From: an uncultured delta proteobacterium
Lineage (GTDB): Bacteria; Myxococcota_A; Polyangia; Fen-1088
Direction: 5' to 3'
Assembly (NCBI GenBank): GCA_963796685.1
Contig: CAWCMR010000011.1
Span: 96,001 to 160,000, forward strand
DNA length: 64,000 bases
Shown: positions 2,633-5,795 of the stretch, in pieces
How the letters are laid out: each line of letters begins with the position of its first letter
Numbering within the stretch: the stretch's first letter is position 1
Notes under the pieces: model-generated
Databases searched by the model: none
Seen by the model: the letters and a program-made list of their open reading frames with translations, nothing else
Told to the model about the DNA's origin: nothing
Translations under genes and position numbers: made by a program

Positions 2633-4105
2633 GCCAGCTACGCACGTGCGCGCTCCGATCCCCTCGCCCCGCGCAAGGGCTAGGGTGAGGGGCCAGGGCA
2701 CGCTCTCGCATGGCCGAACCCCTCACCCGACGCGCTTCGCGCGTCGACCTCTCCCCGCTTCGCGGGGCGAGGTGAATCTTCCGCGGCCACGCGCCTGGGG
2801 TCCGGCCAGCTACGTACGTGCGCGCTCCGATCCCCTCGCCCCGCGCAGCGGGGAGAGGGCTAGGGTGAGGGGCCAGGGCACGCTCTCGCATGGCCGAACC
2901 CCTCACCCGACACGCTTCGCGCGTCGACCTCTCCCCGCTTCGCGGGGCGAGGTGAATCTTCCGCGGCCACGCGCCTGGGGTCCGGCCAGCTACGTACGTG
3001 CGCGCTCCGATCCCCTCGCCCCGCGCAGCGGGGAGAGGGCTAGGGTGAGGGGCCAGGGCACGCTCTCGCATGGCCGAACCCCTCACCCGACGCGCTTCGC
3101 GCGTCGACCTCTCCCCGCTTCGCGGGGCGAGGTGAATCTTCCGCGGCCACGCGCCTGGGGTCCGGCCAGCTACGTACGTGCGCGCTCCGATCCCCTCGCC
3201 CCGCGCAGCGGGGAGAGGGCTAGGGTGAGGGGCCAGGGCACGCTCTCGCATGGCCGAACCCCTCACCCGACGCGCTTCGCGCGTCGACCTCTCCCCGCTT
3301 CGCGGGGCGAGGTGAATCTTCCGCGGCCACGCGCCTGGGGTCCGGCCAGCTACGTACGTGCGCGCTCCAATCCCCTCGCCCCGCGCAGCGGGGAGAGGGC
3401 TAGGGTGAGGGGCCAGGGCACGCTCTCGCATGGCCGAACCCCTCACCCGACACGCTTCGCGCCTCGACCTCTCCCCGCTTCGCGGGGCGAGGTGAATCTT
3501 CCGCGGCCACGCGCCTGGAGTCCGGCCAGCTACGCACGTGCGCGCTCCAATCCCCTCGCCCCGCGCAAGGGCTAGGGTGAGGGGCCAGGGCACGCTCTCG
3601 CATGGCCGAACCCCTTACCCGACACGCTTCGCGCGTCGACCTCTCCCCGCTTCGCGGGGCGAGGTGAATCTTCCGCGGCCACGCGCCTGGGGTCCGGCCA
3701 GCTACGCACGTGCGCGCTCCAATCCCCTCGCCCCGCGCAGCGGGGAGAGGGCTAGGGTGAGGGGCCAGGGCACGCTCTCGCATGGCCGAACCCCTCACCC
3801 GACGCGCTTCGCGCGTCGACCTCTCCCCGCTTCGCGGGGCGAGGTGAATCTTCCGCGGCCACGCGCCTGGGGTCCGGCCAGCTACGTACGTGCGCGCTCC
3901 GATCCCCTCGCCCCGCGCAAGGGCTAGGGTGAGGGGCCAGGGCACGCTCTCGCATGGCCGAACCCCTCACCCGACGCGCTTCGCGCGTCGACCTCTCCCC
4001 GCTTCGCGGGGCGAGGTGAATCTTCCGCGGCCACGCGCCTGGGGTCCGGCCAGCTACGTACGTGCGCGCTCCGATCCCCTCGCCCCGCGCAAGGGCTAGG
4101 GTGAG
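2633..4105. repeat. Tandem array of 172/180-bp REP/BIME-like units, left part (8 units)
   Basis: Marker CATGGCCGAACCCC at 2709, 2889, 3069, 3249, 3429, 3601, 3781, 3953 (spacing 180 or 172). Each unit has CCTCKCCCCGC-loop-GCGGGGMGAGG hairpins and a GGGTGAGGGG/CCCCTCACCC inverted pair. Confidence 0.97.
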
Positions 4106-4126
4106 CATCTGTGTTCCTAGTCAAGG

Positions 4127-5077
4127 TCAAATCTCCGTGGTTTGCCAGCGCGAGTTAGAGCGCAACATGGCGTTGAGGATGGTGAGCAGCTTGTGCATAC
4201 AGGCGACGATGGCGACCTTCTTGAGCTTTCCTGCGGCGACTAGCCGAGCGTGGAATCTGGCGATGACTGGGTTGAAGCGTATGGCAGCTAGGGTGGCCAT
4301 GTAGAGGACGTTGCGGACTTCGGTGCGGCCGCCCCAGATGATGCGGCGGCCGCGCAGGGTGCCGCTGTCCCGGTTGAGTGGAGCAACACCGATGAGGGCT
4401 GCGATCTGCTTGCGGTTGAGGGTTCCAGTCTCAGGGGCATGGGACAGGATGGTGCGAGAGAGGACGGGGCCAGCTCCTGGAACGCTTTGGATGATGTCGT
4501 CCTTGGCTTTCCAGACCGAGGAATTGCCGATGGCCGTGTCGATGTCGTTGTCCACCTCGTCGAGCTGCTTTTCGAGGTAGGAGATGGTCCTGCGGATGGC
4601 CCTCTGCACGCGCTTGGAGGGAGGGTCAGCGCTGAGACGGTTTTTCTCGGCAGTGATCATGTCGACCACCTGCCTGCGCCTGGCGAGAAGGGCGGCAAGC
4701 TCCTGGGTCTCTGCGTCGACAGGCGGGCGGACGGGTGGCCGTATTCGTTCGGCGAAAAGAGCGATCATGGCGGCGTCCAGGGCATCGGTCTTCGCGAGAC
4801 AGCCGTTGGCCTTGGCGAAGTCGCGAACGCGTCTGGGGTTGACGACGACAGCGGGCAGGTTGGCAGCGAGGAGCGCCGCAAGCACGCGTCGTTCGAGTCC
4901 ACCGGTGGCCTCAAGAACGATGAGGGTGACGTTCAGGGCGGCCAACTCTTTGCAAAGAGCGCGCACCGTGTTGTCTTGATTGGGGGTGGACCAGGCTCTT
5001 TTGGCCGGCAAGACATGGACGTCGAGCGTGGCCTTGGAGACGTCGATACCTACGAATGTGTCAGCTGTTGGTGTCAC
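4127..5077 (-). CDS. IS110 DEDD recombinase/transposase (316 aa)
   Basis: GTG start after an AAGGAG RBS. Motifs GIDVSK, VLEATG and KTDALDA (DEDD); C-terminal Tnp domain SVPGAG...LNRDSG...[13 protein letters not shown]. Confidence 0.95.
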
Positions 5078-5094
5078 GGGCTCCTTTCGCGAAG

Positions 5095-5345
5095 GACTTC
5101 TGCTCTTGGTATGCCCAGCCTTGCGGAGTATGCGGGCTCGAGGCCCTCTCATCTGTTCGGGCTGCTTGTGAAAGTCGACACGACGACCCTCGCTCACCCA
5201 CGGTCTTTGTGACCTGAGGGGCATCGGTCTGTCGTGCCGTTGAATCTCGTCGTGCTCCTTCGCCTTTGGGGGCGAGCGTAGCCCAGCTTTGCTGGGCGAA
5301 GCGAGGGGGGACCGGGGGACTGCGAGCGAGAGCGAGCCAGTCCCC
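5095..5345 (-). ncRNA. Putative bridge RNA of the IS110 element (ends approximate)
   Basis: On the element strand: GCCCCT(CA)-GGTC/GACC stem-GGGTGAG matches both sides of the target. ACAGATG-GGGC/GCCC stem-ATAC matches the donor. It lies downstream of the promoter formed at the circle junction. Confidence 0.8.
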
Positions 5346-5356
5346 CGTAAGATACA

Positions 5357-5795
5357 AGGGGCCAGGGCACGCTCTCGCATGGCCGAACCCCTCACCCGAC
5401 ACGCTTCGCGCGTCGACCTCTCCCCGCTTCGCGGGGCGAGGTGAATCTTCCGCGGCCACGCGCCTGGGGTCCGGCCAGCTACGTACGTGCGCGCTCCGAT
5501 CCCCTCGCCCCGCGCAAGGGCTAGGGTGAGGGGCCAGGGCACGCTCTCGCATGGCCGAACCCCTCACCCGACACGCTTCGCGCGTCGACCTCTCCCCGCT
5601 TCGCGGGGCGAGGTGAATCTTCCGCGGCCACGCGCCTGGGTCCGGCCAGCTACGCACGTGCGCGCTCCGATCCCCTCGCCCCGCGCAGCGGGGAGAGGGC
5701 TAGGGTGAGGGGCCAGGGCACGCTCTCGCATGGCCGAACCCCTCACCCGACACGCTTCGCGCGTCGACCTCTCCCCGCTTCGCGGGGCGAGGTGA
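5357..5795. repeat. Tandem REP/BIME-like array, right part (~3 units)
   Basis: Marker at 5378, 5550, 5729 (spacing 172, 179). Resumes at the exact base where the left part stops. Confidence 0.97.

Follow-up and report, generated by a model that had tools for sequence, protein, structure and literature searches.

Introduction

Insertion sequences (IS) can move by recombination that is guided by an RNA, and among the described systems closest to the locus reported here is IS621, whose bridge RNA carries a target-binding and a donor-binding loop (Durrant et al., PMC11208160; Hiraizumi et al., PMC11208158). Hiraizumi et al. place the left donor guide (LDG) of IS621 at residues A123-C130 and its right donor guide (RDG) at A157-U158/C162-G165, and they describe a handshake rule by which handshake guides pair with position 7 of the non-cognate DNA (PMC11208158). 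Longer right target guides (RTGs) in some orthologues, as well as thousands of predicted bridge RNAs, are reported by Durrant et al. (PMC11208160).

In this study, we have analysed an IS110-group element in a stretch of 64,000 nucleotides (contig CAWCMR010000011.1, positions 96,001 to 160,000; hereafter the window) from the metagenome-assembled genome (MAG) of an uncultured delta proteobacterium. The element measures 1255 bp, including the CT core at both junctions, and lies on the minus strand at 4104-5358. An initial annotation, made from the letters of the window, had proposed that its bridge RNA is programmed against a repeat of the host itself, resembling repetitive extragenic palindromic (REP) sequences. 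Based on the anatomy of the element, the homology of its recombinase to that of IS621, the covariation of its left-end RNA and the concordance of guides and flanks within and between genomes, we consider it very probable that this is an active or recently active IS110-group element which moves by bridge-RNA-guided recombination like IS621.

Anatomy of the element and its recombinase

The features on which the argument rests are listed below in window positions; the left end of the element has the higher numbers, and LTG stands for left target guide.

5359..5365, minus strand: left target half CTGGCCC, whose last 4 bases (GCCC) are the part common to insertion sites
5357..5358, minus strand: left CT core copy, followed by the right donor half TGTAT (5352-5356)
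5349..5354, minus strand: predicted -10 box TATCTT of the left end, with a spacing of 17 nt to the -35 box once a circle joins the two ends
5264..5351, minus strand: 88-nt RNA leader, whose two hairpins covary and which the bacterial family also has as a dispersed repeat
5177..5238, minus strand: target-binding loop module, made of a 12-bp stem in which one A is bulged, then an internal loop and the inner GGUC/GACC hairpin
5217..5222, minus strand: LTG GCCCCU (GCCC plus core CU), followed by CA at 5215-5216
5193..5199, minus strand: RTG GGGUGAG, the complement of CT-CACCC; handshake bases CG at 5191-5192
5113..5162, minus strand: donor-binding loop module, with a GCCC/GGGC outer stem (C-G to U-A changes) and an inner GGGC/GCCC hairpin
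5150..5156, minus strand: LDG ACAGAUG
5120..5131, minus strand: discontiguous RDG, AUAC (5128-5131) ... CAAG (5120-5123); handshake bases GC at 5118-5119
4127..5077, minus strand: recombinase gene, 316 aa, GTG start, TGA stop
4119..4124, minus strand: predicted -35 box TTGACT of the right end, 6 nt before the left donor half, and half of a promoter that only the circle would hold
4104..4112, minus strand: left donor half ACAGATG (4106-4112), to which the LDG is identical, and right CT core copy (4104-4105)
4097..4103, minus strand: right target half CACCCTA, with CACCC in 15/15 visible right flanks
4104..5358, minus strand: whole IS110-group element, in 7 copies of 100% identity with exactly the same ends
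2633..4103, continuing at 5359-about 5750, no strand: tandem array of 11 units of 172-180 bp, like a bacterial interspersed mosaic element (BIME), with the element inserted in one unit

On the minus strand, the left junction reads ...gccctggccc-CT-tgtatc (CT at 5357-5358) and the right junction ...acagatg-CT-caccctagccc (CT at 4104-4105), that is, ...ACAGATG-CT-CACCCTAGCCC. Because neighbouring repeat units show the uninterrupted site GGCCC-CT-CACCCTAGCCC, the insertion is precise, with CT alone common to both ends, and the reconstructed donor is ACAGATG-CT-TGTAT. The junctions, core and donor of the initial annotation were recovered in full, and its guide coordinates (GCCCCT(CA) 5215-5222, GGGTGAG 5193-5199, ACAGATG 5150-5156 and ATAC 5128-5131) proved exact on re-derivation, as did the GGTC/GACC and GGGC/GCCC stem-loops that it had placed between the guide pairs. 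A left end of 281 nt and a right end of 23 nt flank one long reading frame, there are no terminal inverted repeats and the core dinucleotide is shared, which is the architecture of the IS110 group. An IS1111-group element would have a long, guide-bearing right end and long subterminal inverted repeats, whereas here it is the left end that contains the structured RNA, and the right end is 23 nt long.

The reading frame (5077-4127) begins with GTG, has AAAGGAG before its start and encodes a protein of 316 aa that matches the Pfam domains DEDD_Tnp_IS110 (PF01548, 2.8e-23) and Transposase_20 (PF02371, 9.7e-17). Over residues 8-308 it matches the solved structures of the ISCro4 transposase (9T56, 2.9e-31, the best match) and the IS621 transposase (8WT6, 1.2e-26). 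Its GID, LEATG, TDALDA and DSG motifs align to the IS621 residues D11/E60/D102/D105 and S241 that were mutated by Hiraizumi et al. (PMC11208158); the catalytic motifs are all intact, and in the conserved serine motif DSG takes the place of the ESG of IS621. The protein is thus a DEDD/Ser recombinase and a full-length homologue of IS621, accompanied by an RNA of which all four helices covary, and it belongs to the bridge-recombinase class to which it had been assigned from the sequence. Relatives at 61-68% protein identity carry the titles Deltaproteobacteria, Polyangia, Myxococcales and, in one case, Burkholderiales. These taxa, along with a 99%-identical copy in a delta proteobacterium MAG, make the suggestion of a probably myxobacterial host plausible.

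Insertion sites and the guides that match them

Seven full copies with 100% identity and intact frames, one of them split by a 2075-bp insert, are present in the MAG that holds the window (G000, 7.31 Mb, 64.7% GC); their left flanks are GCCC in 6 and ACCC in 1, their right flanks CACCC in 7/7, and the flank bases common to all of them are only those matched by GCCCCU and GGGUGAG. Of its two congeners, G002 has 8 full copies (99% identity) at different sites, with GCCC on the left in 8/8 and CACCC on the right in 7/7 visible flanks, and G001 has 1, with CCCC and CACCC. When the three genomes are pooled, 16/16 full copies lie at [G/A/C]CCC-CT-CACCC (left GCCC 14, ACCC 1, CCCC 1; right CACCC in 15/15 visible flanks) and none of these 16 at an unrelated site. 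All 16 therefore fit the GCCC-CT-CACCC flanks that the initial annotation had proposed to look for around other copies.

These sites are abundant in the host. The empty 11-mer GCCCCTCACCC has 121 occurrences in the genome on both strands, against 17.6 predicted from base composition; shuffled 11-mers have a mean of 7.6 and a maximum of 102, and 0/200 reach 121. The sites fall in at least three repeat families (A, 42 sites; B, 25; C, 28, including the tandem array of the window) that have only the 11-mer in common. A CCCCGC-N-GCGGGG palindrome lies 5-30 nt downstream of most target sites, and in family C the target itself forms the 3' arm of a 10-bp inverted repeat, so that REP/BIME-like is a fair description of what had been called a REP-like repeat. 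Two REP-like hairpins occur in each unit of the array, together with a target on either strand, GCCC-CT-CACCC on the minus and ACCC-CT-CACCC on the plus, and the array offers 10 further intact perfect targets as well as 10 ACCC-variant targets in the opposite orientation.

The comparison between elements carries the same relation beyond this one guide pair. We located right junctions by an exact match to the LDG of each element; 61/72 loci had such a junction with 5 nt or more of flank, and there the next five bases were compared with the RTG. Among 32 distinct RTG/flank pairs the match was 5/5 in 17, 4/5 in 7, 3/5 in 7 and 1/5 in 1; the mean was 4.22/5 for cognate and 1.38/5 for non-cognate pairs, and 0/10000 permutations reached the observed sum. 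Natural guide changes in relatives go with changed flanks, as the following loci illustrate.

L018: LTG CGGCCU, RTG GGGAGAG, site CGGC-CT-CTCCC
L019: LTG UAACCCU, RTG GGGAGAG, site TAACC-CT-CTCCC
L020: LTG CAACCCU, RTG GGGAGAG, site TAACC-CT-CTCCC
L086: LTG UUGCCCU, RTG GGGAGAG, site TAGCC-CT-CCCCC

On the donor side, the LDG and the right end of L019 both read ACAGACG, against ACAGATG in the others. The handshake bases obey the same logic. In 48/48 distinct pairs, the RTG is followed by a base that pairs with donor position 7, which is U in all three elements whose donor ends in A; in 30/33 distinct pairs, the base that follows the RDG is paired with target position 7. A:U pairs are among the covarying combinations, along with others. 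Both rules hold in the window element, with C facing donor G and G facing target C.

In the loops of the window element, the 5' side spells the left half plus core and the 3' side is complementary to the core plus right half, the LDG lacking the core match. The target guides extend over 4+2 nt (LTG) and 5+2 nt (RTG). In the left target guide as first drawn, GCCCCT(CA), GCCC plus the core stands and the trailing CA is probably linker; likewise AUAC is a part of the right donor guide, which in full is AUAC plus CAAG.

The closest relatives (61-68% identity) target TA[AG]CC-CT-CTCCC, which in family C units lies ~10 bp downstream of the site used by the window element; through about three guide changes, then, the landing point has shifted while the kind of repeat stayed the same. 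The specificity of the window element, which the initial annotation took to be different and perhaps new, does differ from the IS621 target. It is not unique, since a Methylovirgula MAG contains an element with the same target core (L027, 56% protein identity; LTG ..GCCCCU, RTG GGGUGAG, site TCGCCC-CT-CACCC), and the lists of predicted bridge RNAs and targets of Durrant et al. (PMC11208160) may already include this element or guide pair.

Structure of the left-end RNA

The loop region was aligned with five relatives found through the recombinase protein, and a covariance model (R1) with the IS621-type architecture and open guide loops was then built. R1 has a match in 69/81 loci, on the coding strand and immediately upstream of the gene for the recombinase (E<=0.001; 5 of the 69 are training sequences, and several of the negative loci lack upstream DNA). 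The loci with a match belong to Myxococcota, Chloroflexota, Cyanobacteria and Proteobacteria, and also include one from an archaeal MAG and a pseudogene copy from E. coli. Over 71 distinct homologues, the four helices that frame the guides are paired in 96.2% of cells, against 70.6% in shuffles and 33-49% in slid controls, the latter being the fairer comparison because the alignment was fitted to the model. Compensatory change is seen in 21/25 pairs, with 421 cells changed on both sides. The RNA thus consists of two modules, each a stem, an internal loop and a stem-loop, with the target loop first.

Within this frame, hypervariable guide positions adjoin near-invariant linkers. Column information is 0.26 bits in the LTG and 0.28 in the RTG, 1.90 in the AG that complements the core, 1.68 in the next C (the first handshake base) and 1.50 in the LDG, which agrees with the variable first loop and conserved second loop described by Durrant et al. 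(PMC11208160). We also considered a direct pairing of LTG with RTG, which was suggested by the single-sequence fold and by RNAalifold on six close sequences with too little variation; it was rejected, being kept in only 45-58% of 67 homologues. As the helices flanking the guides covary and this pairing is poorly kept, the guides sit in loops and are not buried in stems; such burial is what the initial annotation had named as fatal to its proposal.

A scan of 3500-6000 against Rfam (E<=1) returned no bridge-RNA family, and its sole match was a sub-threshold one to sX15 on the opposite strand. In public RNA libraries, contigs from two studies overlap the loop region (X15 record 16, 5133-5282, with 3 differences; X16 records 21-23), where DNA carry-over is possible. 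Word depth over 5268-5381 is 20-50-fold higher in RNA libraries, a figure that sums over organisms and is thus unreadable as expression, and the same holds for the stretches that have no cover. Among the contig joints in the public runs, the one that goes back 1597 reflects the tandem array, and two short ones at 5353/5354 lie within the leader repeat.

Proposed mechanism and its alternatives

We propose that excision would join the right end to the left end and so create a sigma-70 promoter across the circle junction (TTGACT, 17 nt, TATCTT), which is predicted from the two boxes as they stand in the sequence once the ends are joined. TTGAC[ACGT] is found at the same fixed position in 26/43 distinct related right ends, and 10 more carry near-consensus hexamers. 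This promoter would drive a left-end RNA of roughly 230 nt, made up of the 88-nt leader, the loop for target binding and the one that binds the donor, followed by the recombinase gene. LTG GCCCCU and RTG GGGUGAG would then specify GCCC-CT-CACCC, ACAGAUG and AUAC...CAAG would bind the circle junction ACAGATG-CT-TGTAT, and the DEDD/Ser recombinase would exchange strands at CT. The REP/BIME-like families bearing the 11-bp target would provide more than 100 safe intergenic landing sites. Transcription, the formation of a circle and the dependence on RNA are the predicted parts of this scheme.

Several observations weigh against it. On the left side, in a fixed register, 28 pairs match at 2.5/5 against 1.53/5 (0/10000 permutations), a small effect whose size is understated because the register shifts by one base in some clades. 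The LTG pairs with 4 target bases plus the core, and the three bases 5' of it (GAU) match no flank. The 8th LDG base is A, against C in close relatives and IS621, which leaves the first core base C unpaired on the donor side, and the RDG has a 3-nt insertion relative to the closest relatives, making AUAC contiguous with GTAT. The fit of the covariation alignment to R1 favours structure, and folding of the single sequence yields only a modest gain over shuffles (z = -1.95), with some of the LTG paired to the RTG. Finally, in the assembled contigs of the public runs we saw no RNA ends, no junction of right end to left end in a circle and no empty-site joint.

Some of these points would suit a dead relic, in which the guides once matched and movement has since been lost: the LDG core mismatch and the RDG insertion would be its scars, and no circle junction was seen in the assembled contigs. 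We regard this as very unlikely, given that G000 has 7 copies with 100% identity and intact frames, that the 8 of G002 (99%) lie at different sites, that copies are inserted into the relics of earlier copies, and that all catalytic motifs are intact. It could also be argued that the likeness of the flanks reflects nothing other than insertion into repeats, with the protein or the REP hairpin picking the site and the left-end matches being coincidental or copies of the target. All sites do lie in repeats with GC-rich hairpins, and the abstract of a preprint on ISPpu10 states that a target stem-loop adds specificity. Yet three unrelated repeat families have in common just the 11 bp that the guides specify, the flank varies with the guide over 32 distinct elements beyond what any of the permutations reached, and the donor guide covaries with the right end, so that this account appears highly improbable.

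A different objection concerns the strand and the role of the left-end structure, which might be a 5' untranslated region or an antisense regulatory small RNA of the recombinase gene rather than a guide. The weak match to sX15 (RF02234) on the plus strand at 5098-5249 (29.4 bits, gathering score 55) speaks for it. So do the Xanthomonas/Stenotrophomonas loci (L083, L088, L090, L091 and L095), in which sX15 lies opposite the recombinase gene, scoring 147-149 bits in three, 107 bits in one that a contig end truncates, and in L083 46.9 bits, which falls short of the gathering score (55). The match leaves the strand unfixed, because the helix set folds on either strand, and the weak hit in the window is explained by the coverage that sX15 gives, on the opposite strand, to the bridge-RNA region of IS110 elements in Xanthomonas/Stenotrophomonas. 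The guide-flank and handshake covariation obeys the sense-strand scheme of IS621 and the conserved promoter is directed along the sense strand, which together make a purely regulatory role highly improbable. Guided recombination of the IS621 type remains the reading that we adopt in what follows.

Left-end relics and the guide-coding DNA

Beside the full copies, we found 24 truncated left ends in G000, G001, G002 and G011. Of these relics, 18/24 end at element positions 138-144, which is the DNA that codes the LTG and core (GATGCCC-CT-CA), a figure to be taken as a count and not as a test, as the relics may not all be independent events. The other six end at positions 127, 108, 105, 89, 63 and 45. 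In G002, left-end pieces of ~140 bp number 14, against 8 full copies. The ends at 138-144 take these forms:

Intact GATGCCC-CT-CACCC: 2
Another left end at that CT: 3 (L127, a full copy; L128, a contig-cut copy; L139, a second relic)
GATG-CT-CACCC: 2
Joined to the right end, as a mini element of ~200 bp: 1
Core region short of one to three bases: 10

Relic loci include G000:C25:1109419-1109562, C8:212939-213083, C25:234099-234238 and C25:1543315-1543396 in G000, and L127-L130 and L136-L144 in G002.

As the LTG has to be encoded in DNA, an internal half-target (GATGCCC-CT-CA) is present in every copy, and it agrees with the specified target in left 4/4, core 2/2 and right 2/5 bases. The most economical reading of the relics, drawn from sequence comparison, is that the machinery of the element appears to treat its own guide-coding DNA as a half-target. 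Such use would explain the 18/24 relic stops within 7 nt of the half-target in three congeneric genomes, the three left-end insertions at that CT and the excess of pieces in G002. Relics could arise by partial excision between the guide-coding DNA and the right junction, or by insertion of a new copy into the guide-coding DNA followed by loss; half-match and partial-circle behaviour in the preprints of Hu et al. 2026 and Xie et al. 2026 is compatible with both routes. Guide-coding DNA is not among the endpoints named in section 9 of Hu et al. 2026. The left-end pieces may be products of partial excision, or self-propagating mini-circles mobilised in trans. The joint reading, in which the guide-coding DNA is used as an internal half-target, which explains the relics, and the leader (see below) is an independent conserved repeat that the IS captured or spawned, is one that we put forward tentatively and with somewhat less than even confidence.

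Two miniatures of ~175-200 bp with both element ends were also observed, L131 (G001:C2:825779-825953) and L141 (G002:C43). In them, positions 1-127 or 1-143 of the left end are followed by the final 43-57 bp of the element. Both lie at ACCC/GCCC-CT-CACCC sites and are candidates for mobilisation in trans. The window itself contains, at 13216-13260 on the minus strand, a 45-bp left-end relic (positions 1-45, 100% identity), with ...GACTGCTC before it and a REP-like hairpin after it.

The leader module and a group II intron

The leader corresponds to element positions 5-92 and recurs alone in related genomes (L107, L119, L146 and others). Both of its hairpins show compensatory change (8/20 pairs over 19 sequences). 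A model of the leader matches 59/89 genomes of the family at E<=1e-5, one genome having at least 49 candidates, and the recombinase is found in only 12/89 (E<=1e-40), counts that are blurred by MAG incompleteness and collapsed repeats. In genus g11, the module is present in 8/8 genomes and the recombinase in 0/8. Copies of the module alone do not include the target loop and so are not left-end relics, and G002 has four tandem copies of the leader with a period of 175 bp. Leaders of about 40-80 nt occur in relatives outside the group of the window element. The IS lineage may have captured the leader repeat or may have spawned it, and the module is perhaps transcribed. Contigs of the RNA libraries pile up on the leader, with a depth that sums over organisms.

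The 2075-bp insert mentioned above sits at element position 57/58 and is a group II intron, present at the same position in one full copy and one relic (G000:C11:75849-77923, L098, and G000:C25:1543397-1545471). It matches RVT_1 (1.7e-42), GIIM (2.7e-15), RF02001 (79.7 bits) and RF00029 (46.6 bits), the last two for D1-D4 and D5-D6, and has an open reading frame of 554 aa for a reverse transcriptase/maturase. The intron is antisense to the IS and lies directly after the reverse complement of leader hairpin 2.

Implications

Our results add one further natural bridge-RNA element, from a soil MAG of the Myxococcota type, with a guide layout that is short on the left and long on the right. In its close relatives, some three guide bases are different and the landing site is shifted by ~10 bp within REP units of this kind, which represents a clean natural case of retargeting by guide mutation. 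Natural variants that deserve testing by those who build tools are the 4+2 / 5+2 division of the target guides, the LDG mismatch to the core, which is tolerated, and an RDG in which AUAC is contiguous. Guide-coding DNA as an internal recombination site, if it is used as such, bears on design rules for off-target and self-target activity of bridge recombinases.

Comparison with known systems

The comparison with IS621 rests on residue names in the papers (PMC11208160, PMC11208158) and on the protein in the PDB; a search of E. coli genomes at distant similarity returned L097, another IS110 member, which is a pseudogene. The two elements are alike in the two recombinase domains, aligned over their full length, in the CT core, the insertion into REPs and a promoter split across the circle junction, and in a left-end RNA with the target loop before the donor loop. 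In both, this RNA has handshake bases, one A bulges from the stem of the target loop, and the RTG is preceded by a G-U linker. The IS621 donor ACAGTAT-CT-TGTAT, as given in the initial annotation, has no occurrence as a string in the available text of Durrant et al., but it is consistent with the residues given by Hiraizumi et al. Close relatives of the window element share the 8-nt LDG of IS621 and its RDG pattern (AU / two unpaired, flipped / G / CAAG), which L018 shows as AUUUGCAAG.

There are clear differences as well. The protein match between the two elements is only ~1e-26, and the target is GCCC-CT-CACCC here against ATCAGGC-CT-AC in IS621, with an LTG of 4+2 against 7+2 and an RTG of 5+2 against 2+2. 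Unlike IS621, the window element has an LDG that does not match the core C, an RDG with a 3-nt insertion and ~70 extra leader nt; the distance between the left junction and the start of its bridge model is 117 nt, as compared with about 40-45 nt in many relatives. The comparison with the ISCro4 transposase (PDB 9T56), the best solved-structure match at 2.9e-31 over residues 8-308, covers the protein sequence.

Other described systems resemble the locus in part. ISPpu10 and ISPpu9 of Pseudomonas putida are IS110-family elements in REP sequences, as is the window element, and the target of ISPpu10 adjoins a GC-rich stem-loop, as it does here. The small-RNA module of ISPpu9 (ssr9) also occurs alone, although what occurs alone in our case is the bridge RNA's 5' leader and not a downstream gene. 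The Xanthomonadaceae small RNA sX15 (Rfam RF02234) covers the same left-end region of IS110 loci in Xanthomonas/Stenotrophomonas but the strand of its model is opposite to that of the recombinase gene. This family may represent an RNA antisense to a bridge RNA; alternatively, its model may be reversed. Lastly, the IS110 partial circles of the Hu et al. 2026 and Xie et al. 2026 preprints are, like our relics, truncated products with one true terminus and a recurrent internal endpoint. In contrast to those preprints, the internal endpoint here is the DNA that encodes the LTG, and the products are chromosomal relics and nested copies rather than circles.

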